Shown here: piece by piece, positions 4,632-47,762 of the stretch
Numbering within the stretch: position 1 is the first letter of the stretch
How the letters are laid out: every line of letters starts with the position of its first letter
Assembly (NCBI RefSeq): GCF_035474595.1
Contig: NZ_DATIND010000152.1
Location: 3,518-67,517, forward strand
DNA: 64,000 nt
Source of the DNA: Longimicrobium sp.
GTDB lineage: Bacteria > Gemmatimonadota > Gemmatimonadetes > Longimicrobiales > Longimicrobiaceae
Reading direction: 5' to 3'
Position numbers and translations under genes: made by a program
The notes under the pieces: model-generated
Seen by the model: only the letters and a program-made list of their open reading frames with translations
Told to the model about the DNA's origin: nothing
Databases searched by the model: none

Positions 4632-4633
4632 CG

Positions 4634-23100: not shown

Positions 23101-25093
23101 CATCGACGACCAGGTAAAAGTCCGCGGCTTCCGCATCGAGCCGGGCGAGGTCGAGGCGGCGCTGCGGCTCCATCCCGCGCTCCGCGACGCCGCCGTGGCC
23201 GTGCGCGAGGACGGCGGCGAGAAGCGGCTCGCCGGCTACGTCGTCCCCGTCGCCGAGGCGCCGGCGGCGGACGAGCTGCGCGCGTTCCTGAAGGCGCGGC
23301 TTCCCGCGTACATGGTGCCGGCCGTGTTCGTCACCATGGACGCGCTCCCGCTGGCGCCCAGCGGCAAGGTGGACCGCGCGCGCCTCCCCGCGCCCGACGG
23401 GCGGCGGCTGGAGTCGGCACAGGGGTACGCCGCCCCGCGCACTCCGGCCGAGGAGGCGCTGGCCGGCATCTGGGCCGAGGTGCTGCGCCTCCCGCGCGTG
23501 GGCGTGCACGACAACTTCTTCGCGCTGGGGGGAGATTCCATCGTCTCCATCCAGGTGATCGCACGCGCCAACCAGGCCGGCATCCGCATCTCCCCGCGCC
23601 ACGTGTTCGTGCACCAGACGGTGGCCGAGCTGGCCGCCGCCGCGAACGAGACCGGCGCGCCCGTCGCCGAGCAGGGAATCATCACCGGCCCCGCGCCGCT
23701 CACCCCCATCCAGCGCTGGTTCTTCGCGCAGGAGCCCCCCGAGCCGCACCACTTCAACCTCGCCGTCGTCTGGGAGATGGCGGAGCGCGCCGATGCCGCC
23801 ACCGTGGAGCGCGCCGCCGCCGCCATCGTCGCCCACCACGACGCGCTGCGGATGCGCTTCGAGCACGGCGCGGACGGGTGGCGGCAGACGAACGCCGACG
23901 CGTCCGGCCCCGCGCCGTTCGAGGCCATCGACCTTTCCTCCATCCCCCCCGCGGAGCGCGAGGCGGCGTTCACCGCCCGGGCGGACGCGGTGCAGCGCTC
24001 GCTGGACCTAGCCGCCGGGCCGCTCGTCCGCTTCGCGCGGGTGGAGATGGGCGGCGGCGCGCCGCGCCTCCTCCTCGTCGCGCACCACCTGGTGATGGAC
24101 GCGGTGTCCATCGGCATCGTCGCGGCGGACCTGGAGACGGCGATCCGCCAGCTCGCGGCCGGCGGGGAGGTGCATCTTCCTCCCAAGACCACGTCGTTCC
24201 GCCACTGGGCCGAGCGCCTGGCGGCACACGCGCGCAGCGGCGAGGTGCGCGCGCAGGCGGCGTTCTGGCTGGAGCAGCCCGCCGCCGCGCCGCTCCCCGC
24301 GGACTTCGCGGATGCTCCCAATCCGGAGGGCGAGGCGGACCGTGTCTCCGTCGAGCTGGACGCGGAGACCACGCGCGCGCTGCTGCACGACGCCCCGGCC
24401 GCGTACCAGACGCAGATCGGCGACCTCCTGCTGGCCGCGCTCGCCCGCGCCTTCCGCGGGTGGACGGGGGAGCGCGCGCTGCTGGTGGACGTGGAGGGCC
24501 ACGGCCGCGAGGACCTGTTCGACGGGGTGGACCTGTCGCGCACCGTCGGCTGGTTCACGGCCATCCACCCGCTCCGCATCGAGCTGCCGGAGGAGGACGG
24601 CCCGGGCGAGGCCATCAAGGCGGTGAAGGAGCAGATCCGCGCCGTCCCCGCGCGCGGCATCTCGCACGGGCTGCTGCGCTGGCTCTCGGACGATCCCGAG
24701 ATCCCCGCGCTGCTCGCCGCCCTCCCGCGGCCGCAGGTCGCCTTCAACTACATCGGGCGGATGGAGATGGGGGGCGGGGAGGATGCCGCGCTCCTCCGCC
24801 CGTCGGACGCGGACGCGGGGACCGGCCGCGGCCCCGCCGCCGGGCGCCCGCACCTGGTCTCTATCGACGCGATGGTGATGGACGGTCAACTGCACGCCAC
24901 GTGGAGCTACGGCGCGCGCGTCCACCGCCGCGAGACGATCGGGCGCGTGGCGGAGGCGTTCGTGGCCGAGTTGCGGGCGCTGGTCGAGCACTGCCGCGAC
25001 CCGCGCGCCGGCGGCTACACCCCGTCGGACTTCGCGCTGGCGGAGCTGGACCAGGGTGCGCTGGACTCGCTCCTGGCGCGGCTGGGCGGGTGA
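20120..25093 (+). CDS. NRPS3: C(atypical)-A(aliphatic-like, DAFFLGLVVK)-T-E with C-terminal COM helix
   Basis: C HHIATDG. T GGDSI (pre-E type). E motifs HHLVMDAVS, EGHGRE, RTVGWFT, FNYIG. Ends YTPSDF...LDSLL. Confidence 0.92.
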   Translation: MSDTQTPPISPDRLASAKRQLLARRLRGEVKAPAPRDAIRKAPGGPAYPMSYQQEQLWFLDQLQPGSPFYNIPSANLVSARIDVPTLERALGEIVRRHEALRTVFRLVDGRPMQIVQPPFALRVPVEELRGADGGDAPAERVRRKVGEWGALPFDLQNGPLIRARLYRVSEDDCMLAMNIHHIATDGWSMPLITREMEELYEAFARGEPSPLAELEVQYADYSVWQREHLAGAAMERQLGHWRRHLEGAPPSLDLPYDRPRPAVQRNRGAIHRFVYPAALTSQLHALGTAEHASVNMVFMAGFNLLLQRYSGQSDLVVGTLLGNRNRAELESLVGYFVNSGAIRTRLDGDPTFREVVRQVRTSVLEADAAQEVPFDRVVDAVGAPRDPARNPLFQVMYFHHTFVGMHHLDDEEGLASSLNLRSLYQETDVVLVDTGAAKFDMTWATLEQDGALTSMVEYSTDLFDESTIARMVAHLRALLADACARPDVPLSRLEMVTAEEREMLLAAGTNEGAFPRGVSLPALLRARAEAMPDAAAVEFEDASWTYAQLAARADAVAARLLRLGVAPGDAVGIEAASTARVVASIAGVLRLGAAVVPLDPEYPRERLAFMAGDTGIRAVLAEGDRLAWLGERPGTTVVRLDREWAEIEAEPVPHHLPDADPEAAAYLIYTSGSTGTPKGVRVPHRAVVRTTHRPDYVEIGPGARMAQQSSLSFDASVFEVWGALLNGATLVNVPRDILLDAGAYGRALAEKRISVAFLTTGLFHQVADTNPAAFASLGHVLFGGEAVSAAHVRRVSEAHPHLRLTNLYGPTEVAVVTTSHRVAPADVERASIPIGRPIGGTRVYVMTAGGQMAGVGVPGELYAAGEGVALGYHRRPELDAERFVPDPFVAGAIAYRTGDRVRWCESAKVRECESNSPRAEFSSPTPGRPTLARPYAGRADPVPPPGSFGGGTGEERARERAHEAEDPRGAESRDEPTLALSHSRTFALQFLGRIDDQVKVRGFRIEPGEVEAALRLHPALRDAAVAVREDGGEKRLAGYVVPVAEAPAADELRAFLKARLPAYMVPAVFVTMDALPLAPSGKVDRARLPAPDGRRLESAQGYAAPRTPAEEALAGIWAEVLRLPRVGVHDNFFALGGDSIVSIQVIARANQAGIRISPRHVFVHQTVAELAAAANETGAPVAEQGIITGPAPLTPIQRWFFAQEPPEPHHFNLAVVWEMAERADAATVERAAAAIVAHHDALRMRFEHGADGWRQTNADASGPAPFEAIDLSSIPPAEREAAFTARADAVQRSLDLAAGPLVRFARVEMGGGAPRLLLVAHHLVMDAVSIGIVAADLETAIRQLAAGGEVHLPPKTTSFRHWAERLAAHARSGEVRAQAAFWLEQPAAAPLPADFADAPNPEGEADRVSVELDAETTRALLHDAPAAYQTQIGDLLLAALARAFRGWTGERALLVDVEGHGREDLFDGVDLSRTVGWFTAIHPLRIELPEEDGPGEAIKAVKEQIRAVPARGISHGLLRWLSDDPEIPALLAALPRPQVAFNYIGRMEMGGGEDAALLRPSDADAGTGRGPAAGRPHLVSIDAMVMDGQLHATWSYGARVHRRETIGRVAEAFVAELRALVEHCRDPRAGGYTPSDFALAELDQGALDSLLARLGG
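22831..23084 (+). repeat. In-frame palindromic A7-A8 insert, copy 4 (84 codons)
   Basis: Same arms and core. Confidence 0.95.
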
Positions 25094-25098
25094 GCGGG

Positions 25099-28000
25099 AT
25101 GAGCGACGCCGACCGCCTGGCCGCCCTCCCGGCCGAGAAGCGCCGCCTCCTCGAGGCGCGGCTGCGCATCGCGCGCGACGCCGTGTCCGGCGGCGGCGCC
25201 GGGGCGCTGCGCCCGCGCGCGCGGCCGGACGGCACGGCGCCGCTCTCGTTCGCGCAGCAGCGCCAGTGGCTGCTGGAGCGGATGGATCCGGGGACGGCGA
25301 CCTGGAACATGCCCGTGGCGCTGCGGCTCCGCGGCGCGCTCCACGTCCCGGCGCTGGAGCGCGCGCTCGACGCGCTGCGCGACCGGCACGAGTCGCTGCG
25401 CACCACCTTCGCCGAGCGCGGCGGCGCGGCGGTGCAGGTCGTCCACCCCTTCGTCCCCATCCCCCTGCCGGTCGAGGACCTGTCGCACCTCGACGGTTCG
25501 GAGCGCGAGGCCGAGGCGATGCGGCGCGCGCAGGCGGACATGGACGCGGGGTTCGCCCTGGCGGCCGGGCCGCTCTTCCGCGCGCGGCTGCTGCGGCTGG
25601 CCGCCGCCGACCACGCGCTGCTCCTGTGCATGCACCACATCGTCAGCGACGGGTGGAGCCTGGGGGTGATGGAGCGCGAGCTGGCCGCCCTCTACGCCGC
25701 CTTCGCCGCGGGGGCGCCGAACCCCCTGCCGCCGCCCGCGCTGCAGTACGCGGACTTCGCGGCATGGCAGCGCGAGTGGCTGTCGGGCGACCGGCTGGAC
25801 GGCGAGGTGGAGTTCTGGCGGCGCGCGCTGGCCGGCGCCCCGCCCGCGCTGGCGCTGCCCACCGACCACCCGCGCCCGCCGGTGAAGAGCGCGCGCGGCG
25901 CCCGCGTCTCGGTGGACCTGCCGCACGCGGTGGCGGAGCGGCTGCGCGCGCTGGCGCGGGGCGAGAACGCCACCCTCTTCGCCGTGCTGCTGGCGGCGCT
26001 CCGCGTGGTCCTCACGCGCTGGTCCGGCGACGACGACGTGGTGATCGGTACGCCGGTGGCCGGAAGGACGCGGATGGAGACGGAGGCGCTCGTCGGCTAC
26101 TTCGTGAACACGCTGGCGCTGCGCACGCCGCTCTCCGGCGACCCGCCCTTCCGCGCGCTGCTGCGCCGCGAGGCCGAGACGGCGCTGAGCGCGTTCTCGC
26201 ACCAGGAGCTGCCGTTCGACCGCGTGGTGGACGAGCTGAAGGCGCCGCGCGACCCCTCGCGCACGCCGCTCTTCCAGGTGATGCTCGCGCTCCGCAACGC
26301 CGGCGAGGACGGGCTCCGGCTCCCGGGTCTGGCTGTGGAGCCGATGGCGACGGAGCTGCACGTCAGCCGCTTCGACCTCACCTTCGAGGCGGCCGAATCC
26401 GACGGCGAGATCAACCTGGTCTGCGACTACGACGCCGCGCTCTTCGAGCCGTCCACCGCGCGCGCGCTCCTCGATCACCTCGCCCTCGTCCTCCACCGCG
26501 CCGCCGAATCCCCCGACGCGACGCTCTCCGCAGTGGCGACGTGGGACAAAAAGGACAACGCGCCCCGGGTCGCCCCGAACGACCCGGCATCGCTCCTGTG
26601 GGACAAAAAGGACAACGTCTCGGAGCGAAGCGAAACCGTCGTCAGCCGCTTCCTCGCCGCCGCGGCGCGGACGCCGGATGCGCCCGCGCTGGCGTGGCGC
26701 GATGGGGGGATGACATACGCGGAGCTGGAGATGCGCTCCGCCGCGCTGGCTGCCGGGCTGCGCGCCCGAGGCGCCGGGCCGGAGACGGTCGCCGGCGTGT
26801 TCGCCGAATGGTCGCCGGAGCTGGTGATCGCGCTGCTGGGAGTGATGCGCAGCGGCGCCGCGTATCTCCCGCTCGACGCGTCGCTCCCGCTTGAGCGCAT
26901 CGGCTGGCTGCTGGGGGATACGCACGCGCGCATCGTGGTGACGACGCCCGCCCTGCGCGACAGCCTTCCCGACGGCGGCCGCTTCGTAGCGCTGGTGGAT
27001 GCGGCGGAGACGGCGGACCGGGGGGATTGGGAGGACGGGGAGATCGACCCCGATTCCGCCGCCTGGATCGTCCACACCTCGGGGACGACGGGCGCGCCGA
27101 AGGGCGTCGTGGTCCCGTACGGCGCGGTGGCCGCGCACCTGGCCGCGGTCGCGGAGGCGTACGGGCTGGCGCCGGAGGATCGGACGCTCGGCTTCGCGGC
27201 GCTGTCGTTCGATCCGTCGCTGGAGCAGGTGCTGGCGCCGCTGGCCGTCGGCGCGTCCGTCGCCCTGCGCGACGCGGAGCCGTGGACGCCGGAGGAATTA
27301 GCGCGGCGCCTCCCGGCGCTGGGCGTCACCGTCGCCAATCTCCCCACGCCGTACTGGCACCAGCTCGTCCGCGAGCCGGAGGCGGCCGCCGCGGTGAAGC
27401 GATCCGTCCGCCTCCTCGTTGCCGGCGGCGAAGCCATGCACCCCGACGCCGTCCGCGCCTGGGACGCGCTCCCCGGCGGCGCCGCGCTGCTGAACGCGTA
27501 CGGCCCCACCGAGGCCGTCGTCACCGCCACCTTCTTCCCCGTCCGCGACGGCTTCGCGGCCGCCGACCCTGCGCGCGTCCCCATTGGCGCGGCGATCGCC
27601 GGCCGCGAGCCGCGCGTGGTAGACGCGATGCTGCGCGCGGTCCCGAACGGTGCGCCCGGCGAGCTCTGCCTGGGCGGCCCCGCGCTGGCCCGCGGCTACC
27701 TGCGCGCCCCCGCCCTCACGGCGGAGCGCTTCGTCCCCGACCCGTTTTCCCGCGAGGCGGGGGCGCGGATGTACCGAACGGGCGACCGCGTGAGATGGTG
27801 CGAAAGTGCGAAAGTGCGACAGTGCGAAAGTATCAACTCGGCACTCCCGCATCCGACGCTCACGCCGATGGATGCAGGCCCCGCGAACCCCGTCCCTCCC
27901 CCAGGCAGTTTTGGGGGAGGGACAGGCGAGGAACGAGCCAGGGAGAGGGCCCGCGGAGGCGCGGAAACGCGCACCGCCGACTCCTGCGATGTGTCCACTT

Positions 28001-31000
28001 TCGCACTCTCGCACTCTCGCACTTTCGCACCTTCGCTCGCACTCGATCTCCTCGGCCGCACCGACGCGCAGGTAAAGATCAGCGGCGCGCGCGTCGAGCC
28101 CGGCGAGGTCGAAGCCGCCCTGCGCGCGCTCCCCGACGTGGCGGAATGCGCCGTCGCCGCGCGGGCGGACGCGTCGGGGGAGATGCGGCTCGCGGCGTAC
28201 GTCGTCCCGCGCGGCGAGCTGGACGCCGCCGCCGTCCGCGCCGCGCTGGCCGCGCGCCTCCCGGCGTGGCTCGTCCCCTCGGCAATCGTCCCCATCGGCG
28301 CGATCCCGCGCACGGCCACGGGAAAGATCGACCGCCGCGCCCTCCCGCCGCCCGACTTCGCCGCCGCCTCCGCGCGCGGCGAGCCGCCGGTGACCGAAGA
28401 CGAGCGGATGCTGGCCGCGATCTGGGCCGAGGTGCTGGGCGCGGACGCCATCGCCGCGAGCGACAACTTCTTCGAGCGCGGCGGGCACTCGCTGATGGCC
28501 ACGCAGGTCGTCTCCCGCGTCCGCTCGCTCCTGGGCGTGGAGCTGCCGATGCGCGCCGTCTTCGAATCCCCCGTGCTCCGCGACCAGGCCCGCCGCCTCG
28601 GCGCGCTGCGCGGGGCGGGGGAGATGGAGCAGGCGGGGGATGCGGCGCCGGCGCGGACGGAAGCGGCGGGGGCGCTCCCGCTGTCGTTCGCGCAGGAGCG
28701 GCTCTGGTTCATCGACCGGATGGAGCCGGGGAGCGCCGCCTACAACGTCCCCGCCGTGCTCGACGTCACCGGCCCGCTGGACGTGGCCGCGCTGGAGCGC
28801 GCGCTCGGCGAGATCGTCCGCCGCCACGAGCCGCTGCGCACCGTTTTCGCCATCGAAGGCGACGCGCCGGTGCAGGTCGTGCAGCCTTTCACCGGCTTCC
28901 ATCTCCCCGTCACCGACCTGTCACGGCTCCCGGCGGAGGTGCGCGAGCTGGAGACGGAGCGCGCCCTTGCCGCCGAGGCGCGCGCGCCGTTCGACCTCGC
29001 CGCGGGGCCCGTCTTCCGCGCGCGCCTTATCCGCCAGGGCGAGCGCGAGCACGTCCTCTCGCTCGTCCTCCACCACATCGCCACCGACGCGTGGTCCGGC
29101 GGCATCATCCTGCGCGAGCTGGAGGCGCTGTACGACGCCTTCCGCCGCGGCCAGCCGTCGCCCCTCCCGCCGCTGCCGATGCGCTACGCCGAGTTCGCGG
29201 CGCGGCAACGCCAGTGGCTGAGCGGGCCCGCGCTCGAGCGGCAGCTGGAGTTCTGGCGCGCGCGGCTGGCCGGCGCCCCCGCGCTGCTCGAGCTCCCCGC
29301 CGACCGGCCGCGCCCGGCGGTGCAGGACACGGCCGGCGCCCTCCTCCCCTTCGTCCTTCCCGCCGACGCCGCCACCCTCGCGCGCGCCGCCGCCCGGCGC
29401 GAGGGCGCCACGCTGTTCATGGTGCTGCTGGCCGCCTTCCAGGCGCTCCTGCACCGCTGGACGGGCGAGGAAGACGTGGTGGTCGGCACGCCCATCGCCA
29501 ACCGCGCGCGGCCCGAGCTGGAGGGGCTGGCCGGCTTCTTCGGCAACACGCTGGCGCTGCGCGGCGACCTCTCCGGCGACCCGACGTTCGCCGCGCTGCT
29601 GCGCCGCGTGCGCGACGCCACGCTGGACGCGTACGCCCACCCGGACGTGCCGTTCGAGAAGCTGGTGGACGCGCTGAAGGTGCCGCGCAGCCTGAGCCAC
29701 GCGCCGCTTTTTCAGGTGATGCTCACCGTCCAGAACACGCCAGCGGGGGATGGCGATGCGCTCGGTGAGGCGCGCCTCCGCCCGCGCCGCGTGGAAACGG
29801 CCACGTCGCGCTTCGACCTGACGCTGATCCTGTTCGAGGCGGAGGATGGCCGGATCCGGGGCTGGGCCGAATACGCCACCGCGCTCTTCGACGAATCCAC
29901 CATCGAGCGCCTGACGCGCCACCTCGGGACGCTCCTCCGCGAGGCCGCCGCGTCGCCCGGCATCCCCATCTCCCACCTGTCCCTTCTGTCCGGCGAGGAG
30001 CGCGGCCAGCTCCTCCGCGGCCTCAACCGCACCGATCGCCCGCGCGCGGCGGAAACGGCGCACGCGCTCGTCGCCGCGCAGGCGGCGCGCACGCCGGACG
30101 CCGCCGCGATCGAACATCAGGGCGAGCGGGTGACATACCGGGAGATGGAGGCGCGCGCCAACCGCCTCGCGCACCGCCTGCGCCGCCTGGGCGTCGGCCC
30201 CGACGCGCGCGTCGCCGTGGCGATGGAGCGGTCGGTGGAGATGGTGATCGCCACGCTCGCCGTCGCGAAGGCGGGCGGCTGCTGCGTCGCCGTCGATCCG
30301 GCGTATCCCGCCGATCGCGTCGCGTACATGCTGGCCGACAGCCGCGCCGCCGTCGTCCTCACGACGTCGGACGTCGCCGCGCGCCTCGCCTCGTCCGCCG
30401 CACGCGTCCTCCGCATCGACGCCGAGCGCGAGGAGATCGCGCGCGAGCCGGCGGACGATCCGCGTGTCGAGGTCGATCCCGAGAACCTGTTCTACGTCCT
30501 CTACACCTCCGGTTCCACGGGCCGGCCGAAGGGCGCCGCGCTCCCGCACCGCGCCGTCGCCAACCTCCTGCGCTGGCAGATCGAGCGGTGGGGGGATGCC
30601 GCGCCCGTGCGGACGCTGCAGTTCGCCTCGCTCTCCTTCGACGTCGCGTTCCAGGAGATCTACGCCACGCTCGCCAGCGGCGGCACGCTCGTGCTGATCG
30701 ATGACGACACGCGGCGCGACCCCGAGGCGCTGATGCGGCATCTGCGCGAGCACCGCATCGAGCGGCTGTTCCTGCCGTTCGCGGCGCTGCAGAACCTCGT
30801 CGAGGGGACAGGGAAAAGGGGACAGGGGACAGGGAACGGCGATCCGGCCTCGTCCGCGGCGCATCTCCCCGACCTCCGCGAGGTGATCACCGCGGGCGAG
30901 GCGCTGCGGTCGACGCCGCAGCTGCGCGCCTTCTTCCGCGCGAACCCGCAAGCCGCGCTGGAGAACCAGTACGGGCCCAGCGAGACGCACGTCGTCTCGG

Positions 31001-32181
31001 CGCAGCGCGTGGAGGGCGATCCGGAGGCGTGGCCCGCGCTCCCGCCGATCGGCGCGCCGGTGGACAACACGCGGCTGTACGTGCTGGACGCGCGGATGCA
31101 CCCCGTCCCCCTGGGCGTCCCGGGCGAGCTGTACGCGGGCGGCGCCAGCCTGGCGCGCGGCTATCTCGGCCGCCCCGCGCTCACGGCGGAGCGTTTCGTC
31201 CCCGACCCGTTCGGGCCAGCGGGGGGACGGCTGTATCGCACGGGAGACCGGGTGAGATGGTGCGAAAGTGCGAAAGTGCGAGCTTGCGAAAGTAACAGCC
31301 CGGCACGCCAGCATCCGACGCTCGCGCAGCCGGTCACAGGCCCCGTGAACCCCGTCCCTCCCCCAGGCAGTTTTGGGGGAGGGACAGGCGAGGCACGAGC
31401 CAGGGAGAGGGCCAACGATGCGGCGGACGCGCATGATCGCGAGTCCCGCGACGAGCCCACTCTCGCACTTTCGCACTCTCGCACTTTCGCACTTCAGTTC
31501 CTCGGCCGGACCGACTTCCAGGTAAAGCTCCGCGGCTTCCGCGTGGAGCCCGGCGAAATCGAGGCGGCGCTCACGGAGCACCCGTCGGTCGCCCAGGCCG
31601 CCGTCGTGGTGCGCGGCGACGGGGCGGGGAAGCGGCTCGCGGCGTACGTCGTCCCCGCGGCGGGCGCGGCGGCCGACGTGGCCGGGCTGCGCGCGCACCT
31701 CGCGGGGCGGCTTCCCGAGTACATGGTGCCGGCCGCGTGGCGGGTGATGGACGCGCTCCCGCTCACCCCGTCCGGCAAGCTCGACCGCCGCGCCCTCCCC
31801 GAGCCGGACGCCGCGGCGCCGACCGCCCCGATGGCGACGCCGAAGAGCGCCACGGAGCGCGCCGTCGCCCGCGTCTGGTGCGACGTGCTGGCGGTCGATG
31901 CGGTGGGGCTGGACGAGAACTTCTTCGAGATCGGCGGCCACTCGCTCCTCCTCGTCGCCCTGCAGAAGCGCCTGCGCGACGCGCTGGATGCCGAGATCTC
32001 GGTCATCGACCTCTTCCGCTTCCCCACCGTCCGCGCGCAGGCCGCGCACATCGCGTCGCAGGGGGATGGAGCCGCGGCAGGCGCCGACGCGCGCGGCGAC
32101 ACGCGATCCGAAACGGCCGCGCAGCCCGGCCACGACCGCGCGGCCATGCGGCGCGAGATGCTGCGGCGCGGGCGGAGGTAG
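25099..32181 (+). CDS. NRPS4: (C(LCL)-A-T)x2; A codes DPENVGAVTK (basic residue-like) and DVQFIAQVVK (Pro-like)
   Basis: ATG 25099 lies 5 nt after the NRPS3 stop. Two C domains (HHIVSDG, HHIATDA), two A domains, two GGHSL T domains. Confidence 0.92.
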   Translation: MSDADRLAALPAEKRRLLEARLRIARDAVSGGGAGALRPRARPDGTAPLSFAQQRQWLLERMDPGTATWNMPVALRLRGALHVPALERALDALRDRHESLRTTFAERGGAAVQVVHPFVPIPLPVEDLSHLDGSEREAEAMRRAQADMDAGFALAAGPLFRARLLRLAAADHALLLCMHHIVSDGWSLGVMERELAALYAAFAAGAPNPLPPPALQYADFAAWQREWLSGDRLDGEVEFWRRALAGAPPALALPTDHPRPPVKSARGARVSVDLPHAVAERLRALARGENATLFAVLLAALRVVLTRWSGDDDVVIGTPVAGRTRMETEALVGYFVNTLALRTPLSGDPPFRALLRREAETALSAFSHQELPFDRVVDELKAPRDPSRTPLFQVMLALRNAGEDGLRLPGLAVEPMATELHVSRFDLTFEAAESDGEINLVCDYDAALFEPSTARALLDHLALVLHRAAESPDATLSAVATWDKKDNAPRVAPNDPASLLWDKKDNVSERSETVVSRFLAAAARTPDAPALAWRDGGMTYAELEMRSAALAAGLRARGAGPETVAGVFAEWSPELVIALLGVMRSGAAYLPLDASLPLERIGWLLGDTHARIVVTTPALRDSLPDGGRFVALVDAAETADRGDWEDGEIDPDSAAWIVHTSGTTGAPKGVVVPYGAVAAHLAAVAEAYGLAPEDRTLGFAALSFDPSLEQVLAPLAVGASVALRDAEPWTPEELARRLPALGVTVANLPTPYWHQLVREPEAAAAVKRSVRLLVAGGEAMHPDAVRAWDALPGGAALLNAYGPTEAVVTATFFPVRDGFAAADPARVPIGAAIAGREPRVVDAMLRAVPNGAPGELCLGGPALARGYLRAPALTAERFVPDPFSREAGARMYRTGDRVRWCESAKVRQCESINSALPHPTLTPMDAGPANPVPPPGSFGGGTGEERARERARGGAETRTADSCDVSTFALSHSRTFAPSLALDLLGRTDAQVKISGARVEPGEVEAALRALPDVAECAVAARADASGEMRLAAYVVPRGELDAAAVRAALAARLPAWLVPSAIVPIGAIPRTATGKIDRRALPPPDFAAASARGEPPVTEDERMLAAIWAEVLGADAIAASDNFFERGGHSLMATQVVSRVRSLLGVELPMRAVFESPVLRDQARRLGALRGAGEMEQAGDAAPARTEAAGALPLSFAQERLWFIDRMEPGSAAYNVPAVLDVTGPLDVAALERALGEIVRRHEPLRTVFAIEGDAPVQVVQPFTGFHLPVTDLSRLPAEVRELETERALAAEARAPFDLAAGPVFRARLIRQGEREHVLSLVLHHIATDAWSGGIILRELEALYDAFRRGQPSPLPPLPMRYAEFAARQRQWLSGPALERQLEFWRARLAGAPALLELPADRPRPAVQDTAGALLPFVLPADAATLARAAARREGATLFMVLLAAFQALLHRWTGEEDVVVGTPIANRARPELEGLAGFFGNTLALRGDLSGDPTFAALLRRVRDATLDAYAHPDVPFEKLVDALKVPRSLSHAPLFQVMLTVQNTPAGDGDALGEARLRPRRVETATSRFDLTLILFEAEDGRIRGWAEYATALFDESTIERLTRHLGTLLREAAASPGIPISHLSLLSGEERGQLLRGLNRTDRPRAAETAHALVAAQAARTPDAAAIEHQGERVTYREMEARANRLAHRLRRLGVGPDARVAVAMERSVEMVIATLAVAKAGGCCVAVDPAYPADRVAYMLADSRAAVVLTTSDVAARLASSAARVLRIDAEREEIAREPADDPRVEVDPENLFYVLYTSGSTGRPKGAALPHRAVANLLRWQIERWGDAAPVRTLQFASLSFDVAFQEIYATLASGGTLVLIDDDTRRDPEALMRHLREHRIERLFLPFAALQNLVEGTGKRGQGTGNGDPASSAAHLPDLREVITAGEALRSTPQLRAFFRANPQAALENQYGPSETHVVSAQRVEGDPEAWPALPPIGAPVDNTRLYVLDARMHPVPLGVPGELYAGGASLARGYLGRPALTAERFVPDPFGPAGGRLYRTGDRVRWCESAKVRACESNSPARQHPTLAQPVTGPVNPVPPPGSFGGGTGEARARERANDAADAHDRESRDEPTLALSHSRTFALQFLGRTDFQVKLRGFRVEPGEIEAALTEHPSVAQAAVVVRGDGAGKRLAAYVVPAAGAAADVAGLRAHLAGRLPEYMVPAAWRVMDALPLTPSGKLDRRALPEPDAAAPTAPMATPKSATERAVARVWCDVLAVDAVGLDENFFEIGGHSLLLVALQKRLRDALDAEISVIDLFRFPTVRAQAAHIASQGDGAAAGADARGDTRSETAAQPGHDRAAMRREMLRRGRR
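26541..26616 (+). repeat. 19-nt repeat GTGGGACAAAAAGGACAAC x2 (third copy at 35342-35360)
   Basis: Identical copies at 26541, 26598 and 35342, each read as WDKKDN. Confidence 0.9.
27798..28042 (+). repeat. In-frame palindromic A7-A8 insert, copy 5 (81 codons)
   Basis: Same arms and core. Confidence 0.95.
30803..30840 (+). repeat. AGGGGAC heptamer array in frame in the NRPS4 second A domain
   Basis: Encodes GTGKRGQGTGNG. Confidence 0.85.
31260..31492 (+). repeat. In-frame palindromic A7-A8 insert, copy 6 (77 codons)
   Basis: Same arms and core. Confidence 0.95.
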
Positions 32182-37321: not shown

Positions 37322-38410
37322 ATGACGATGTCCCAAGCCGTTTCGCCGCTGCCGGAAATGCCGATGCCGGAAACGAAGAAGAAGCCCAAGGCCGTGAAGT
37401 GCGTGGTGTGGGACCTGGACCACACCGTGTGGGACGGCATCCTGCTCGAGGACGACCACGTGGAGCTGCGGCCGGGGGTGCTCGGCATCCTGCGCACGCT
37501 GGACGAGCGCGGCATCCTGCAGTCCATCGCCAGCCGCAACGACCGCGACCGCGCGATGGAGCGCCTGCGCGCGCTCGGCATCGACGACTACTTCCTGCAT
37601 CCGCAGATCGACTGGAGCGCCAAGGGGCAGAACGTCGAGCGCATCGCCAGGAAGCTGAACATCGGCCTCGACACCTTCCTGTTCATCGACGACCAGCCGT
37701 TCGAGCGCGAGGAGGTGGCGTTCGCCTGCCCGCAGGTGCGCACCATGGACGCGGCCGACCTGGCCACGCTCCTCGATCTCCCGGAGATGAACCCCGAGTT
37801 CATCACCGACGACAGCCGCCGGCGCCGCGAGATGTACCGCGCCGACATCGAGCGGCAGCAGGCCGAGGAGACCTTCGCCGGCCCCAGCGAGGAGTTCCTG
37901 CGCGGGCTGCGGATGCGCTTCACCCTGGCCCCGTGCGGCGAGGAAGACCTGCAGCGCGCCGAGGAGCTGACGGTGCGCACCAACCAGCTGAACACCACCG
38001 GCTACACCTACGGCTACGACGAGCTGGACGCCTTCCGCACCTCGCCGGACCACGTCCTCCTGGTCGCGGGGCTGGACGACCGCTACGGCACCTACGGCAA
38101 GATCGGCCTGGCGCTGGTGGAGAAGACGAGCGCCGGGTACTGGACGGTGAAGCTGCTGCTGATGAGCTGCCGGGTGATGAGCCGCGGCGTGGGCACCATC
38201 ATGATGAGCCACATCATGCGCCTGGCGAAGGACGCGGGCGCGAAGCTCCGCGCCGAGTTCGTCCCCAACGGCCGCAACCGGATGATGGAGGTCACCTACC
38301 GCTTCGGCGGCTTCCACGAGGTCGAGCGCCGCGGCGACATGATCCTCTTCGAGCACGACCTCGCGGCCATCGCCCCCTTCCCCGAGTACGTCGAGGTGGA
38401 GGTGGGATAA
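37322..38410 (+). CDS. fkbH: FkbH-like HAD-superfamily glyceryl transferase (HAD-IIIC plus GNAT-like C-terminal domain)
   Basis: KCVVWDLDHTVWDG, SIASRN, FIDDQPFERE, RTNQLN, LMSCRV are FkbH-family motifs. The start could be 37322, 37328 or 37358. Confidence 0.88.
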   Translation: MTMSQAVSPLPEMPMPETKKKPKAVKCVVWDLDHTVWDGILLEDDHVELRPGVLGILRTLDERGILQSIASRNDRDRAMERLRALGIDDYFLHPQIDWSAKGQNVERIARKLNIGLDTFLFIDDQPFEREEVAFACPQVRTMDAADLATLLDLPEMNPEFITDDSRRRREMYRADIERQQAEETFAGPSEEFLRGLRMRFTLAPCGEEDLQRAEELTVRTNQLNTTGYTYGYDELDAFRTSPDHVLLVAGLDDRYGTYGKIGLALVEKTSAGYWTVKLLLMSCRVMSRGVGTIMMSHIMRLAKDAGAKLRAEFVPNGRNRMMEVTYRFGGFHEVERRGDMILFEHDLAAIAPFPEYVEVEVG

Positions 38411-39017
38411 GGGATGAAGCGTCACAAACCCTGACGTCATCCTGAGGGCGGCCACGTCGCCGCCGGTCCCGCGCCGATGACGGCAGCCCGAAGTATCCAT
38501 AGCCGGAGCATGAGCGTCAGCCGGCGGAAACGCGCGGCGTCATCGGTGCGGGGAGCAACCACCGGTGATCGCCCGGCGCCGCGGCCCTCTCCCCCGGCCC
38601 CTCCCCCAAAACTGCCTGGGGGAGGGGAGACCTCATCGCGAGGAGAGTCGGCGGCTCGATTCAGGATTGCATCCTGCCCGCCTGGCTGGCCCCCTCCCCC
38701 CGGCCCCTCCGCCCGCTCCGCGGGGGAGGGGAGGACTCAACGCGGGGAAGGCTTCGGCGCCGCGCGGGGATGCTGGAGCGGGCAACGCATCACACCACAG
38801 CTGAAGCGTACGCCACCACTTGCGCGCCGCAATCGAAGGTACCCCCCCCGTTATCGGGAGGGGGGTACGCGGCCCCAGCCGCGGGTGGAGGGCCCCACGG
38901 GCGCCGCGGAAGGGAGCTGATGCCTGGTATGCGGTGAGTTCGATCGGCTAATCGGTGATTTCAGCCGTGCTGGCAAGTGCGAGGGGATCCAGTCACCACC
39001 ATCCCAGCGAGCACCCC
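38411..39017. repeat. Intergenic composite REP-like cassette 4, including a free copy of the insert core hairpin
   Basis: GTCATCCTGAG half-element near 38433, core hairpin 38582-38627, unit B 38676-38746, unit C 38833-38893. Confidence 0.85.
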
Positions 39018-42000
39018 ATGCAGGACCTGCTCGACCGCAAGGCGGGCCTCACCGACGCCCGGCGCGCGCTGCTGGAGAAGCGGCTGCGCGGCGAGTCCCG
39101 CGGCGCCCGTCCGCGCGAGGCGATCACCCGCTGCGCCGGCGACGGGCCCGTCTTCCCGCTCTCGTTCGCGCAGGAGCGGATGTGGTTCCTGGCGCAGATG
39201 GACCCGGGCAGCCCCATGTACCAGGTCCCCGTCGCCATCTCCATCCGCGCCGACGTGGACGTGGACGTCCTGGAGCGCGCCGTGGCCGAGGTGGTGCGCC
39301 GACACGAGGCGCTGCGCACCGTCTACCGCATGGTGGGTGGCGAGCTGAAGTCCGTCGTCCTTCCGCCGTACCCGGCGCGCGTGGACGTCTTCGACCATCG
39401 CGGCCGCATCGCCGCGGGCGAGAGCGTGCGGGCGCTCATCGCGGAAGAGGGCGCGCGGCCGATCGACATCTCCACCGGCCCGCTGGTGCGCGTCACCCTG
39501 CTGCGCGTGAGCGACGAGCGCTGCGTGCTGGTGAAGACCACGCACCACATCACCACCGACGGCTGGTCCGAGCCCGTCATCTTCTCCGAGATCGACCACC
39601 TGTACGGCCGCTTCGCGCGCGGGCTGCCCAGCGATCTGCCCGAGCCCCCTCTCCGCTACGCCGACTACGCCGTCTGGCAGCGGCGCTGGCTTTCCGGCGA
39701 CACGCTGCGCGAGCAGGTGGACTACTGGCGGAAGCTCCTGGCCGGCGCCCCCGCGCTCGACCTCCCCACCGACCGTCCCCGCCCGCCCGCCGAAAGCCAC
39801 CGCGGCGCCATCCTCCGCTTCACCGTGCCGCCCGGGCTGACGCTGGCGCTGCGCGAGCTGTGCGCGCGCGAGCGGGTGACGCTGAACATGGTGCTCACCG
39901 CGGGCTTCTTCGCGCTGCTGCACAAGTATTCGGGGCAGAGCGACATCGTGCTCGGCGCGCTCTTCGGCAACCGCAGCCGCGCGGAGCTGGAGCGCATCGT
40001 GGGCTACTTCGTGAACACCGCCGCGCTGCGGATGGACGTGTCGGACGACCCCACCTTCGTGGAGATGGTGGCCCGCGCGCGGACCGCGGTGCTGGACGCC
40101 GACGCGCACCAGGACCTCCCGTTCGAGAAGCTGGTCGACGAGCTGGACCTGCCGCGCGACCTCAGCCGCCACCCGCTGTTCCAGGTGATGTACTTCCACC
40201 ACGTGTACGTGGAGATGCACCGCGCCTCGGACGACGGGATGCTGAGCGCGCTGGACCCGCGGCCGGTGCACGTGGAGCACAGCGTGGCGCTGGTCGACAC
40301 CGGCGTCTCCAAGTTCGACCTGCTGCTGAGCACCATCGAGTCCGGCGACGGGCTGATGGCCACGCTGGAGTTCGCCACCGACCTGTGGGACGTGGCGTCG
40401 ATGCAGGCGTTCTCCGCGCGGCTGCTGGCGCTGCTCGGCGACGCCGCCGCCCGCCCGCACGCCCGCCTCTCGCGCCTGTCGATGCTGGACGACGCCGAGC
40501 GCGAGTCCATCCTCCGCGCCTCCCGCGGCATCGAGCGGGAGATCCCGTTCATCCCCCTCCCCCGCCGCTTCGAGACACAGGCGGCGGCGACGCCGGGCGC
40601 GCCCGCGCTAACGTACGACGGCGCGACGCTCACCTACGCCGAGCTGAACGCGCGCGCCAACCGCCTGGCGCGCCGCCTCCGCGCGCTCGGCGCCGGGCCG
40701 GAGGTGCGTGTGGGTGTCTGCCTGGAGCGCACGCCGGAGCTCGTCGTCTCCCTCCTCGCCGTCCTGAAGTCGGGCGCGGCGTACGTCCCGCTCGACCCGG
40801 CGCATCCCTCCGCCCGCCTGCGCGCGCTGCTGGCCGACGCGCGCGCCCCGCTCCTCATCACCACGTGGGGGAGATGGGAGGCGATCGGCGGCGACCGTGT
40901 CTCGCCTGTCCTCATCGACGCGCACGCGGAGGAGATCGGGCGGGAGGAAGATGGCGATCTGGAGATGGAGATCGATCCGCGCACGCTCGCCTACGTCCTC
41001 TTCACCTCCGGCTCCACGGGAACGCCGAAGGGGGTGGAGGTCCAGCACGGCGGCGTCTCCAACCTCCTCGGCTGGATGCGGGAGATGGTGACGGACGACG
41101 AGCGCGCCGCCGTTCTCGCCTCGACCTCCGCCTCCTTCGACGTCTCCGTCGCGGAGATCTTCGACACCCTCTGCAACGGTGGCCGCCTCGTTCTCGTCGC
41201 CAACGCGCTCGACCTCGTGGGCCTCCCCGGCGCGGACGCGGTGACGATGGGGGTGATGGTCCCCACCGCCGCCGCCGAGCTTCTCCGCGCCGGCGCCCTC
41301 CCGCCGCGGATGGCGACGCTGAACCTGGGCGGTGAGGCGCTCCCGGCCACGCTGGTGGATGCGCTGCACGCGGCCGGTTCGGTGCGCACCGTCCGCAACC
41401 TCTACGGCCCCACCGAGGCGACGGTCTACTCCACCGTCGCCGTCGCCGAGCCCGGCGCGGAGCGCGTGAGCATCGGCCGCCCCGCCGCCAACACGCGCGC
41501 CTGGGTGCTGGACGCGGCGATGGAGCCCGTGCCGCCCGGCATCCCCGGCGAGCTGTACGTGGCGGGGGCGCAGGTGGCGCGCGGCTACCTGCATCGCCCC
41601 GCGCTCACGGCGGAGCGATTCCTCCCCGACCCGTTCTCTCGCGAGGGCGGGGCGCGGATGTATCGGACGGGCGACCGCGTGAGATGGTGCGAAAGTGCGA
41701 GAGTGCGAGAGTGCGAAAGTAACTCATCGCGAGGTGAGACTTTCTCTCCCCCGACACCCAATCGCCCGACGCTCGCGCCGGCGGATGCAGGCCGCGCCGA
41801 CCCCGTCCCTCCCGCAGGCAGTTCTGGGGGAGGGACAGGCGAGGCACGAGCCAGGGAGAGGGCCCACGGAGGCGAGGAAACGCACTCTGCCAGTCCGCGC
41901 GAAGACCCCACTTTCGCACTCTCGCACTCTCGCACTTTCGCACCTTCTCTCGCACTCGAATACCTCGGGCGCCTGGACAGCCAGGTAAAAGTCCGCGGCC

Positions 42001-43877
42001 ACCGCGTCGAACTGGGCGAGGTCGAGCACGCGCTCCTCCATCACCCCGCCGTGCACGAGGCCGTCGCGGTCGTGCGCGACGGGCGGCTCGTCGCGTACAC
42101 CGTCGCCGCGCCGGGGGTGGAGATGGTGGCGCCGGCCGGGCTGCGCGCCTTCCTCCGCGAGCGGCTGCCGGAGATCATGGTCCCCGCCGCCATCGTGGCG
42201 ATGGACGCGTTCCCGACCACCACGAGCGGGAAGATCGACCGCGACGCGCTCCCCGCCCCGCGCGGCGAGGACGAATCGCCCGCGCCCGCGTCCGCCGGCG
42301 GCGAGCCGTCGAACGCGGTCGAGGCGGCGCTGGCGCGCGTCTGGGCCGACGTGCTCGGGCGCGACCGCATCGGCATCCACGACGATTTCTTCGCGATGGG
42401 GGGAGATTCCATCCTCTCCATCCACGTGATCCTCCGCGCGGCGCAGGAGGGGATCCGCATCGTCCCGCGCCAGATCTTCGCGCACCCCACCATCGCCGGC
42501 CTCGCCGCGGTGGCGGGATCGGCGCCGGTGATCCACGCCGAGCAGGGCCCCGTCACCGGCGACGCGCCGCTGGTGCCCGTGCAGGGATGGTTCTTCGAGC
42601 AGGACCTCCCCGACGCGCACCACTGGAACCACGCGGTGATGGTCCGCGCCGCCGAGCGCATCGACCCCGCCGTCCTCCTCCGCGCGGTGGATGCGGTGAT
42701 GGCGCACCACGACGCCCTCCGCGCCGTCTTCCGCCGCGGCGACGAGGGGTGGACGCAGCACTTCCCCGCGCCCGGCGCCCCATCCCCCGTCGATTTCGCC
42801 GACCTCGCCGGCGTGCCGGACGACGGGCTCGCCGCCGCCATCGCCGCGCGGGCGGAGGAGGCGCACGCGTCGCTGGACCTGGAGCGCGGGCCGGTGATGC
42901 GCGCGGTGCTCTTCGACTGCGGCCCGGCGCGCCCGCAGCGGCTCGTCGTCACCAGCCACCATCTCGTGGTGGACGTGGTCTCGTGGCCGCCGCTGCTGGA
43001 GGACCTGGAGACGGCGTACCGCGCGCTCGCCGCCGGCGCCGATCCCCATCTCCCGCCCAGGACCACGTCGTACGCGCAGTGGGCGCGGCGGCTGGCGGAG
43101 TTCGCGCGCACCCCCGAGCTGCGCGCGGAACTCGGCTACTGGTGCGATGCCATCCCCCTCGCCCACCCCCCGCTCCCCGCGGACGGCGACGGCGCGGACG
43201 TGGAGGGCGCCGCGCACGCCGTGGTCGTGGAGCTGGACGAGGCGGAGACGCGCGCGCTGCTGGAAGACGTGCCGCGCGCACACGGCACGCAGATCAACGA
43301 CGCGCTCCTCGCCGCGGTCGCGCACGCCGTCGCGGAGTGGACCGGCCGCGCGGAGGTGCTGGTGGAGGTGGAGTCGCACGGCCGCGAGGACCTGTTCGAC
43401 GACATGCATCCGGCGCGCACCACCGGCTGGTTCACGACCATGCATCCGCTCCTCCTCCGCGCCGAAGCCGCCATCGGCGAAACGCTGCGCGCGACGAAGG
43501 AGATGCGGAGCGCCGTCCCCCGCCGCGGCCTCGGCTACGGGCTGCTGCGCTGGGGTGGAGATCCGGCCGATCGCGCGCTGCTGGCCGCCCGCGCCCGCCC
43601 CGAGATCAGCGTCAACTACCTGGGGCAGATGGACAACCGCGCGCCCGACGCCGCGTCGCTCTTCGTCCCCGCCGCCGAGCCGCTGGGCGCGCTCCGCTCC
43701 CCCCGCGCCCCGCGCCGCTACCGCATCGCCCTGGAGTCGATGACCGCGGACGGCCGCCTCCGCCTGATGTTCTTCCACGGCCCCGCCATCTACCGCCGCG
43801 CCACCATCGAGCGCCTGGCGAACGGGTGCATCACGGCGCTCCGGGAGTTGATCGGGACGGCGAGCGGGGATGGGTGA
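39018..43877 (+). CDS. NRPS5: C(atypical)-A(Ala-clade variant, DVAVNGLVYK)-T-E, no COM tail
   Basis: C HHITTDG. T GGDSI. E-like HHLVVDVVSW, ESHGRE, RTTGWFT, VNYLG. The protein ends without TPSDF. Confidence 0.92.
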   Translation: MQDLLDRKAGLTDARRALLEKRLRGESRGARPREAITRCAGDGPVFPLSFAQERMWFLAQMDPGSPMYQVPVAISIRADVDVDVLERAVAEVVRRHEALRTVYRMVGGELKSVVLPPYPARVDVFDHRGRIAAGESVRALIAEEGARPIDISTGPLVRVTLLRVSDERCVLVKTTHHITTDGWSEPVIFSEIDHLYGRFARGLPSDLPEPPLRYADYAVWQRRWLSGDTLREQVDYWRKLLAGAPALDLPTDRPRPPAESHRGAILRFTVPPGLTLALRELCARERVTLNMVLTAGFFALLHKYSGQSDIVLGALFGNRSRAELERIVGYFVNTAALRMDVSDDPTFVEMVARARTAVLDADAHQDLPFEKLVDELDLPRDLSRHPLFQVMYFHHVYVEMHRASDDGMLSALDPRPVHVEHSVALVDTGVSKFDLLLSTIESGDGLMATLEFATDLWDVASMQAFSARLLALLGDAAARPHARLSRLSMLDDAERESILRASRGIEREIPFIPLPRRFETQAAATPGAPALTYDGATLTYAELNARANRLARRLRALGAGPEVRVGVCLERTPELVVSLLAVLKSGAAYVPLDPAHPSARLRALLADARAPLLITTWGRWEAIGGDRVSPVLIDAHAEEIGREEDGDLEMEIDPRTLAYVLFTSGSTGTPKGVEVQHGGVSNLLGWMREMVTDDERAAVLASTSASFDVSVAEIFDTLCNGGRLVLVANALDLVGLPGADAVTMGVMVPTAAAELLRAGALPPRMATLNLGGEALPATLVDALHAAGSVRTVRNLYGPTEATVYSTVAVAEPGAERVSIGRPAANTRAWVLDAAMEPVPPGIPGELYVAGAQVARGYLHRPALTAERFLPDPFSREGGARMYRTGDRVRWCESARVRECESNSSRGETFSPPTPNRPTLAPADAGRADPVPPAGSSGGGTGEARARERAHGGEETHSASPREDPTFALSHSRTFAPSLALEYLGRLDSQVKVRGHRVELGEVEHALLHHPAVHEAVAVVRDGRLVAYTVAAPGVEMVAPAGLRAFLRERLPEIMVPAAIVAMDAFPTTTSGKIDRDALPAPRGEDESPAPASAGGEPSNAVEAALARVWADVLGRDRIGIHDDFFAMGGDSILSIHVILRAAQEGIRIVPRQIFAHPTIAGLAAVAGSAPVIHAEQGPVTGDAPLVPVQGWFFEQDLPDAHHWNHAVMVRAAERIDPAVLLRAVDAVMAHHDALRAVFRRGDEGWTQHFPAPGAPSPVDFADLAGVPDDGLAAAIAARAEEAHASLDLERGPVMRAVLFDCGPARPQRLVVTSHHLVVDVVSWPPLLEDLETAYRALAAGADPHLPPRTTSYAQWARRLAEFARTPELRAELGYWCDAIPLAHPPLPADGDGADVEGAAHAVVVELDEAETRALLEDVPRAHGTQINDALLAAVAHAVAEWTGRAEVLVEVESHGREDLFDDMHPARTTGWFTTMHPLLLRAEAAIGETLRATKEMRSAVPRRGLGYGLLRWGGDPADRALLAARARPEISVNYLGQMDNRAPDAASLFVPAAEPLGALRSPRAPRRYRIALESMTADGRLRLMFFHGPAIYRRATIERLANGCITALRELIGTASGDG
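41687..41955 (+). repeat. In-frame palindromic A7-A8 insert, copy 7 (89 codons)
   Basis: Same arms; the core carries substitutions (PPAGSSGGG). Confidence 0.95.
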
Positions 43878-44227
43878 AGGAGATCTGGACTGACCGTTAG
43901 GAGGGGCTTCGGCACCGAGCGGAGATGCTCCGCCCGCTTGGCTGGCCCACGCCCCCGGCCCCACCGCCCGCTCCGCGGGGGAGGGGAGAACTAACCGCGA
44001 GGAGCCTCGGAGCGCGCCACGATGGCTGGGTTTCGCCTCGCGGCACACCACCGCCCGACGACTGCATCACCGCCCGAGCGCCCAATCGAAGTTACCCCCT
44101 CCCGTTATCGGGGCCCGTTATCGGGAGGGGGTACGCGGCCCCAGCCGCGGGGAGGGCCCACGGGGGCGCGGCCGCAATGAAGCCCGGCAGCGCCACCCAT
44201 CCGCGGTAACGAGAGCCTGAGCCTGAG
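43878..44227. repeat. Intergenic composite REP-like cassette 5
   Basis: Unit B 43932-43998, unit C 44086-44158. Confidence 0.85.
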
Positions 44228-47671
<3,444 letters not shown>

Positions 47672-47762
47672 CGCGCTGGCATCGGTCTGGCTGGTTACGA
47701 TGCTGCGCCCGTCGTGGATCGGCGGACGCGAGTCCGATCGTCTCCCCGAGCGACGAGTTGTC

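Follow-up and report, generated by a model that had tools for sequence, protein, structure and literature searches.

Docking mismatches in a remodelled Longimicrobium NRPS–PKS cluster and a tentative non-colinear assembly order

The stretch of 64,000 nucleotides analysed here as a whole (the window; positions 3,518 to 67,517 of contig NZ_DATIND010000152.1, Longimicrobium sp. assembly GCF_035474595.1) makes up 64 kb of an 85.4 kb source contig, of which 21 kb lie outside it, and carries a hybrid nonribosomal peptide synthetase (NRPS)–polyketide synthase (PKS) cluster of nine plus-strand genes spanning ~47 kb. Several docking signals of this cluster do not agree with its gene order; comparison with colinear relatives points to gene losses as the origin of the mismatches, and we tentatively propose an assembly order for what is left. 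The window has a G+C content of ~74%, and a frame-specific G+C content at third codon positions (GC3) of ~0.95 marks the coding frames. In the ~47 kb of coding sequence all open reading frames (ORFs) are intact, free of frameshifts and stops. Metagenome-assembled genomes (MAGs) of Longimicrobium and Longimicrobiaceae are the nearest relatives, and the sequence of the window is also present in a soil-metagenome run of 2019 (run X1).

The first gene, NRPS1 (9–4631, its start cut by the window edge), has condensation (C), adenylation (A) and thiolation (T) domains in the arrangement C-A(N-methyltransferase)-T and ends in a docking tail (4512–4628; ...LMDELDGLSDDEVRALL...). It is followed by NRPS2 (4634–14815), which consists of a docking N-terminus (4634–4753), three C-A-T modules with LCL-type C domains and a basic tail towards PKS1 (15272–19789), a KS-AT(HAFH)-KR-like-ACP protein with a docking tail at 19718–19786 (...AEIEEMSEEEILSLV). 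NRPS3 (20120–25093) has a docking N-terminus, an LCL C-A-T module (T core GGDSI at 23528) and an epimerization (E) domain (23672–25090) that closes with the sole COM donor of the window (25019–25090; TPSDFALAELDQGALDSLLARLGG). The NRPS3 stop codon and a 5-nt spacer (25091–25098), the deletion scar, separate it from NRPS4 (25099–32181), which comprises a docking N-terminus (25099–25224), an LCL-type first C domain (C1; 25225–26580), A-T, a further C-A-T module and a basic tail towards PKS2 (32553–37109). The latter has the same KS-AT(HAFH)-KR-like-ACP arrangement as PKS1 and a docking tail at 37032–37106 (...AEIEALSEDEVNELVAG). A HAD-family gene (37322–38410, FkbH-like by eye) stands before NRPS5 (39018–43877), which contains a docking N-terminus, an LCL C-A-T module (GGDSI at 42399), an E domain (42543–43856) and the ORF end GTASGDG (43854–43877). 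After a spacer of high-copy repeats (43878–44227) comes NRPS6 (44228–47671), with a COM acceptor (44228–44293), a DCL-type C domain (44246–45610), A, T and a tail (47576–47668). The possibility that NRPS1 opens with a COM acceptor fed by NRPS3 or NRPS5 was rejected, because its orthologs in two related loci (L041 and L042, 73% identity) have a loading A-T module at their start and are the first megasynthase gene.

NRPS3 ends in ...GGYTPSDFALAELDQGALDSLLARLGG, the only instance of the motif [TA][PA][ST]DF in the six frames of the window. E and T domains of NRPSs are marked by the core motifs HHxxxD, EGHGRE-type, RTVGWF and GGDSI; NRPS3 keeps AHHLVMDAVS, VEGHGRED, RTVGWFT and FNYIG as well as the T core GGDSI, and by these motifs its E domain looks active. 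Only a 5-nt gap separates the NRPS3 stop from the NRPS4 ATG. NRPS4 begins with MSDADRLAALPAEKRRLLEARLR...LRPRARPDGTAPLSFAQ; this N-terminus (MSDADRLAALPAEKRRLLEARLRIAR...) agrees with NRPS4 homologs at 40–41 of 53 positions and includes the 'L[ST/P]xxKRxLLExRLR' region before the LCL domain. For typing of C domains we used hidden Markov models (HMMs) trained on the context of external domains from 40 related loci, 53 of which follow A-T (LCL) and 29 directly follow E in the same protein (DCL). NRPS4 C1, which has the LSxAQxRxW-type N-terminal motif PLSFAQQRQW, scores 567 bits with the LCL model vs 220 bits with the DCL model, and its best solved structures are Txo1/Txo2 and the TycC PCP-C chain (2jgp), whose C domains we take to be LCL-type. 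The remaining full-length C domains, apart from that of NRPS6, are LCL as well; the NRPS1 C domain, cut by the window start, was left out. Thus, the description of NRPS3 and NRPS4 in the first-pass annotation, an E domain with a terminal TPSDF COM helix facing an LCL-type C domain, is borne out, and the C-typing that it called for places NRPS4 C1 outside the DCL type and the NRPS6 C domain within it. When the 125 loci fetched were surveyed, a DCL domain followed in 20 of the 21 trans E junctions that belong neither to the window nor to its relative L121, and the NRPS3|NRPS4 junction is unusual. The same annotation regarded the N-termini of NRPS2 and NRPS4 as nearly identical, which overstates a genuine likeness: 33 of 50 aligned positions agree, above the whole-protein identity of 46.6%. 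Since their counterparts in relatives are alike at 31 of 51 positions, the likeness is ancestral and no special sign of branching.

Independent Logan contigs of run X1 are identical to the window across the NRPS3/NRPS4 junction (25007–25414), the NRPS5 stop (42800–43992) and the NRPS6 stop together with the next gene (47468–48450), so none of these three places owes its sequence to a frameshift or a misassembly. In the same run, word depth inside NRPS4 C1 (25332–25775) reaches ~1870 vs ~15 around it.

NRPS5 keeps the E motifs HHLVVD and ESHGRE and the T core GGDSI, and its C-terminus (...ALRELIGTASGDG) stops right after ...ALRELI plus GTASGDG. The final 34 positions of the E/COM model are absent, with no seam, lid or helix, so the TPSDF motif is indeed missing from NRPS5, as first reported, and a run X1 contig confirms the sequence. 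The relatives cease to be homologous at the codon following ELI and go on there with HC...GGFTPSDF and a COM helix, and no remnant of a COM donor was found in the NRPS5/NRPS6 spacer or downstream. Word depth of run X1 in this spacer reaches ~1180 vs ~15 in the flanks (high-depth stretch 43910–44205), and an inverted repeat with 20-nt arms, 90% complementary, lies at 44093–44133. The run X1 contigs break in these repeats; that NRPS5 and NRPS6 are adjacent is taken from the assembly and from the conserved gene order of relatives. It has been shown that TycA without its COM donor helix gives no product with TycB1 (PMC12402864), which argues against a hand-off from NRPS5 to NRPS6.

Three related Longimicrobium-type clusters are colinear and contain a one-module bridge ("mid": COM acceptor-DCL-A-T-docking tail) between the homologs of NRPS3 and NRPS4. 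Contig DASUYB010000065.1 of MAG GCA_036377595.1 (73.8 kb; L124 and L123) encodes, in this order, homologs of PKS1 and NRPS3, the bridge, homologs of NRPS4 and PKS2, the HAD gene, a homolog of NRPS5 and a three-module protein. The NRPS3 homolog has an E domain and ends in ...TPSDFALAGLDQAGLDALFAEIGE; the free-standing bridge (1079 aa) starts with MDRRNVEDVYPLSPLQ, continues with DCL-A-T and ends in ...LLAELDAMSDEEAAALADVGEG; the NRPS4 homolog starts with MADATDRLAGLSPEKRRLLEMRLRMAR...; the NRPS5 homolog has E and ends in ...GGFTPSDFPEAGLDQASLDALMAQLGG; and the three-module protein (3274 aa) ends in ...LAELSDEELAALLAEV.... The same layout, with a free-standing bridge of 1134 aa, is found in JGI Ga0070686_100000101 (L042 and L125). 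In MAG GCA_045803205.1 (L122) the bridge is fused in cis to the NRPS3 homolog, giving C-A-T-E-DCL-A-T-docking tail, and a second contig of this MAG (L012) encodes a PKS2 homolog, the HAD gene, an NRPS5 homolog with a COM donor, a three-module protein of 3387 aa and a further docking-N-terminus NRPS, also seen after the three-module protein in the related L001. A DCL-A-T module had been expected between NRPS3 and NRPS4, and these relatives have one there, free-standing in L124 and L125 and in cis in L122. Judging from these colinear relatives, the bridge is the ancestral connector from NRPS3 to NRPS4.

The colinear relatives share with the window the gene set, domain order, docking classes and short versions of an insert between A-domain motifs A7 and A8 described below, at 63–88% protein identity. 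They differ in keeping the bridge, the NRPS5 COM donor and a three-module protein with a docking tail; their gene order agrees with docking logic. Where the window has the scar after NRPS3, L124 and L125 have a bridge gene of ~3.3–3.4 kb and a spacer of 172–566 nt, and no bridge remnant was found in the window. Three losses separate the window from these relatives, namely, those of the bridge gene, of the NRPS5 COM donor and of everything after module 1 of the three-module protein, and the comparison shows the docking mismatches to be the scars of these losses. We found no product or study of this cluster family in the literature, only a genome note on biosynthetic gene clusters of Longimicrobium terrae, and exact protein look-ups with NRPS2, NRPS6 and the acyl-CoA dehydrogenase encoded behind NRPS6 gave no match.

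The third of these losses concerns NRPS6. Its N-terminus is the sole COM acceptor motif in the window, and its C domain scores 574 bits with the DCL model vs 296 bits with the LCL model, in keeping with its earlier description as the only DCL domain with a COM acceptor. Its best matches in the PDB are McyB, PvdL, BacC, SrfA-C and TycB, whose C domains follow an E domain. Compared end to end, NRPS6 shares 68.7% identity with module 1 of the L123 three-module protein and 68.5% with the same module in L012. Relocation of the bridge gene to the end of the cluster was rejected as its origin, since identity to the bridge is 43.6% vs the 68.7% to the later module. The specificity code of NRPS6, DVASAALTYK, read with a GrsA-based ruler, also matches the module 1 codes DVASAGQTYK and DVASGALTYK, unlike the bridges, whose codes vary. 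The NRPS6 tail corresponds to the linker that joins T and C in cis in the relatives and breaks off within it, with neither a docking helix nor a thioesterase (TE), and no remnant of module 2 was found after NRPS6 in the window. The tail keeps only the first helix and resembles the short natural tails of L069, L075 and L120, but it lacks the conserved acidic helix.

The bridge-less arrangement is not confined to the window. In L121, an 84 kb ENA contig, the NRPS3 homolog (~75% identical) stops 4 nt before the start of the NRPS4 homolog, with the COM donor conserved at 20 of 24 and the docking N-terminus at 41 of 53 positions. On whether the bridge was lost once or twice, quartet distances are in conflict: NRPS3 and PKS1 pair L121 with L124, whereas by the 5' part of NRPS4 and the COM donor L121 groups with the window. 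L121 also has two C-T-only modules (3–4637 and 14742–20129), in which the A domain is missing in frame (last module of the NRPS2 homolog and first module of the NRPS4 homolog).

The docking inventory of the window consists of three '[LM]S.[DE]E' tails (NRPS1, PKS1 and PKS2), docking N-termini on NRPS2, NRPS3, NRPS4 and NRPS5, one COM donor (NRPS3), one COM acceptor (NRPS6) and two donor-less ends (NRPS5 and NRPS6). The NRPS3 COM donor agrees with the COM donors of relatives at 15–20 of 23–24 positions overall, at 15–16 of 23–24 with the donors that serve NRPS6 orthologs and at 16 of 23–24 with its own orthologs in L124 and L125, and the acceptors of NRPS6 and of the bridge differ at 4–5 of 22 positions. 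With donors this similar and acceptors nearly alike, COM cross-talk from NRPS3 to NRPS6 is plausible, and by this inventory it is the only docking-competent E-to-C link in the window and the best-supported hand-off.

We read the stretch as the distal part of a Longimicrobium-type hybrid assembly line that was remodelled by deletions. The ancestral line, which relatives keep in colinear form, ran from NRPS1 (loading A-T, C-A(MT)-T and docking tail) through NRPS2, PKS1, NRPS3 (E and COM donor), the bridge, NRPS4, PKS2 and NRPS5 (E and COM donor) to the three-module protein (COM acceptor-DCL...docking tail) and further modules. On remodelling, the bridge was lost, the NRPS5 COM donor was replaced by unrelated repeat-rich DNA and the three-module protein was cut after its first T domain to give NRPS6. 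In the remodelled Longimicrobium-type line, NRPS3 would epimerize its residue and dock through the last COM pair onto NRPS6, whose DCL domain would accept the D-configured chain; NRPS6, a single C-A-T module like the lost bridge, would hand the chain to the LCL domain of NRPS4, from where it would pass through PKS2 to NRPS5. The order NRPS1-NRPS2-PKS1-NRPS3-NRPS6-NRPS4-PKS2-NRPS5, which we infer as the most likely productive route while holding it only tentatively, would rebuild the ancestral E to DCL-A-T to LCL logic. The first-pass annotation had put forward the same order; its step from NRPS3 to NRPS6 is upheld by the sole COM pair, but that from NRPS6 to NRPS4 is not, as NRPS6 has no docking tail. 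That the bridge-less junction recurs in the diverged L121, where COM donor and docking N-terminus are conserved, counts as a sign that the line stayed in use. It is also conceivable, if unlikely, that the change was a natural re-programming, in which the non-orthologous NRPS6 was recruited via near-identical COM pairs and trimmed to one module and the competing NRPS5 donor was removed, giving a new, shorter product made in this same order.

A number of observations weigh against this order, the link from NRPS6 to NRPS4 and the release step being its weak points. For the former, the '[LMI]S.[DE]E...L' tail that such a hand-off requires is absent from NRPS6, while the required N-terminal part is present in NRPS4; the NRPS6 tail lacks the '[LM]S.[DE]E' helix of every NRPS1-, bridge- and PKS-type docking tail in the family, leaving four docking N-termini to three docking tails in the window. 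By the identities given above, NRPS6 is the ortholog of module 1 of the three-module protein and not of the bridge that it would stand in for. A distance of 19 kb, occupied by NRPS4, PKS2, the HAD gene and NRPS5, separates NRPS3 from NRPS6, and all 20 of the 20 external E-to-DCL pairs are adjacent. As to release, none of the megasynthases in the window, which leaves out 21 kb of the contig, contains a TE, reductase or terminal C domain, and the window thus offers no termination domain for any proposed order; the sole thioesterase-like signal is a sub-threshold Pfam match in a generic alpha/beta hydrolase (49871–50698). The genes behind NRPS6, encoding an outer membrane protein (OMP) barrel, DUF4097, this alpha/beta hydrolase, an acyl-CoA dehydrogenase and a phosphotransferase (APH), look unrelated to the cluster. 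Furthermore, dN/dS is 0.41–0.47 across all genes, a ratio that extreme GC3 would inflate by probably constraining synonymous sites, and with NRPS6 equal to the others it does not separate used from unused genes. Finally, the unrelated cluster L053 also has an E domain with a TPSDF tail directly before a docking-N-terminus LCL protein, and such junctions may therefore work directly.

This last point bears on the possibility that the line is colinear after all, NRPS3 passing its chain to NRPS4 and NRPS5 to NRPS6, with the NRPS4 LCL domain picking the L-epimer out of the E-domain equilibrium or its docking N-terminus tolerating an acidic COM helix, and with translational coupling and proximity making up for the mismatch. 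In L053 (2652–13597) one protein ends in E and ...YTPSDFPLASLNEKSLKKLEMLIEHSQE, and the next starts with the docking N-terminus LTPAKMGLLEQRLERAR followed by LCL, an independent case and the sole E-to-LCL junction among the 21 trans junctions outside the lineage; the remaining 20 lead to DCL domains. The distance from the NRPS3 stop to the NRPS4 start is 4–5 nt in both the window and L121, and the NRPS3 helix (...LAELDQGALDSLLARL) has an 'LAELD' core in common with the docking tail of the bridge (...LLAELDAMSDEE). Moreover, the adjacency of NRPS5 and NRPS6 and the E-to-DCL logic are ancestral, but NRPS5 is now without its entire COM donor, the kind of deletion that abolished transfer between TycA and TycB1 (PMC12402864), and NRPS6 would be the final module, yet one without a release domain. 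We consider such colinearity quite improbable. More doubtful still is a forked line, in which the NRPS1 tail would serve both NRPS2 and NRPS4 and the routes NRPS1-NRPS2-PKS1-NRPS3-NRPS6 and NRPS1-NRPS4-PKS2-NRPS5 would end at the donor-less NRPS6 and NRPS5, respectively. It has the merit that every hand-off uses a matched docking class (three tails, four N-termini, one COM pair and two donor-less ends), that the N-termini of NRPS2 and NRPS4 are alike at 33 of 50 positions and that the NRPS1 tail (LDGLSDDEVRALL) and the bridge tail (LDAMSDEEAAAL) serving NRPS4 in the relatives belong to one class. A branch at NRPS1, which the first-pass annotation gave as its alternative, has in this respect support no worse than that of its linear order. 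However, the N-terminal likeness also occurs in colinear relatives and is not by itself a cause of branching, and neither branch has a release domain. In addition, the subclasses differ, NRPS2-type N-termini ('RLRMQ') going with 'LSD[DE]E' tails and NRPS4-type N-termini ('RLR[MLI]AR') with 'M[ST]DEE' tails, and this difference could encode specificity.

The pathway could also have been disabled recently. A deletion after module 1, which presumably took the termination module with it, and replacement of the NRPS5 donor would then have left a relic, in which the mismatches are functionless and the damage is young. The missing release domain, the stop of NRPS6 within a linker with unrelated genes behind it and the replacement of the NRPS5 3' end by high-copy repeat DNA would all be expected of a relic, as would the modules without A domains in L121 and the palindromic inserts found in eight of the nine A domains at the Acore/Asub hairpin. 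Nevertheless, these eight inserts differ in length (189–267 nt) and are all multiples of three, the dN/dS of NRPS6 equals that of the other genes, and the bridge-less junction is kept in two diverged genomes. The ORFs intact over 47 kb, together with the in-frame A-domain inserts, argue that the genes were probably under selection until recently, and we regard a relic as unlikely, if less so than either colinearity or a fork.

With respect to known systems, the junction from NRPS3 to NRPS6 resembles the trans COM junctions of tyrocidine, gramicidin S and surfactin synthetases (e.g. TycA/TycB1) and the cis E-COM-C arrangement of BacC, with a T(GGDSI)-E-TPSDF-helix donor and an acceptor embedded in the DCL domain. 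It is unlike TycA/TycB1 in that the NRPS3 donor is not adjacent to the NRPS6 acceptor, that the adjacent NRPS5 is donor-less and that the link is here a predicted one. Cis and trans forms of COM domains in general coexist (PMC12402864), and in line with that description the same junction is in cis in L122 and in trans in L124 and L125. The docking-tail and 'LSxxKRxLLxxRL' N-terminus class, frequent among the 72 trans T-to-LCL junctions surveyed, fits the steps NRPS1 to NRPS2, PKS1 to NRPS3 and PKS2 to NRPS5; of this class NRPS4 has the N-terminal half with no adjacent partner, and NRPS6 has only the first helix. In Bacillus plipastatin synthase, forward translocation of the subunit PPSE along with COM replacement is reported to have been engineered (PMC9519435). 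The idea is the same, a new subunit order obtained by relocating a subunit and altering COM domains, although that case is engineered and the present one would be natural and brought about by deletions.

COM-mediated transfer from E to DCL domains, docking tails and gene orders that differ from module order are already established; the value of this locus is the comparative series that shows the origin of a mismatch. If the rewired order is true, the locus and its colinear relatives record a natural line before and after it lost a whole module and a COM donor and had a multi-module protein truncated. Such a series would help to derive rules of docking-domain cross-talk and to engineer assembly lines, and the locus would be a natural counterpart of engineered COM swaps. 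If the cluster is a relic, it documents the decay of such clusters in uncultured Gemmatimonadota. For genome mining it is a warning that product predictions from gene order can err and that relatives explain a mismatch better than motif logic alone.

Some features of the product can be predicted. The A-domain codes include DALWLGGTF-, DVWHTSLVEK, DAITIAAVAK, DAFFLGLVVK (NRPS3) and DVQFIAQVVK, which we take to stand for N-Me-Val, Ser-like, aromatic, aliphatic and Pro residues, respectively. Both AT domains have GHSLG...HAFH, presumably indicating specificity for malonyl-CoA, and the KS Cys/His/His residues are present. The KR-like domains of PKS1 (18570–19400) and PKS2 (35950–36700) lack the catalytic Tyr (...GRGRMAAAQAF and ...GLARVAMANARV, respectively, where YAAAN is expected), their NADPH motifs are degenerate (AGGLDGRN and AGGLEGRG), and Pfam KR matches are weak. 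PKS1 and PKS2 are thus probably non-reducing modules, and the two ketide units may remain beta-keto groups.

The A-domain inserts are homologous and in frame, and all occupy one site, the hairpin that links motif A7 (YRTGDRxRW) to motif A8 (LxFLGRxDxQVK), at 2457–2711, 7340–7528, 10718–10966, 22832–23083, 27799–28041, 31261–31491, 41688–41954 and 46772–47029. They have a conserved inner hairpin and arms made of inverted runs of the 8-mer GTGCGARA, whose translation includes ... LSHSRTFA. GC3 is ~0.6 in the inserts vs ~0.95 in the host genes, and the copies are 84% identical to one another, compared with 65–67% in the flanks. The RNA fold of the copy in NRPS3 has an energy of -144.5 kcal/mol (z -8.45); Rfam gave no matches in the window. 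The survey covered 364 A domains; the 24 with such inserts all belong to Longimicrobium-type loci, and the versions in relatives are short and arms-only. The inserts are like the in-frame palindromic elements of Rickettsia, but unlike them they occupy one fixed site of a domain family. A low-depth run X1 contig (3.1 vs ~16) joins 46763 to 47030, with 23 nt (TCCGCAGGCTGCCCGACGGGCGG) in place of the NRPS6 insert that read like a normal ...RLPDGR... hairpin turn; it has the look of an allele with an empty site from a related strain, or of a paralog. The arms of the NRPS6 insert reach a word depth of up to ~3700 in the run X1 metagenome.

The HAD-family gene is the most conserved of the cluster (84% identity to L012 and 88% to L123, vs 68–76% for the synthetases), and its position between PKS2 and NRPS5 is kept in all relatives seen. 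Near it, neither a separate carrier protein nor other genes of a glyceryl/methoxymalonyl pathway were noticed. Members of the palindromic element family also occur away from the A7-A8 site, both on the minus strand: an arm inside NRPS2 (8545–8578) and, ahead of NRPS5 in the spacer that follows the HAD gene, an inner hairpin (38597–38628).

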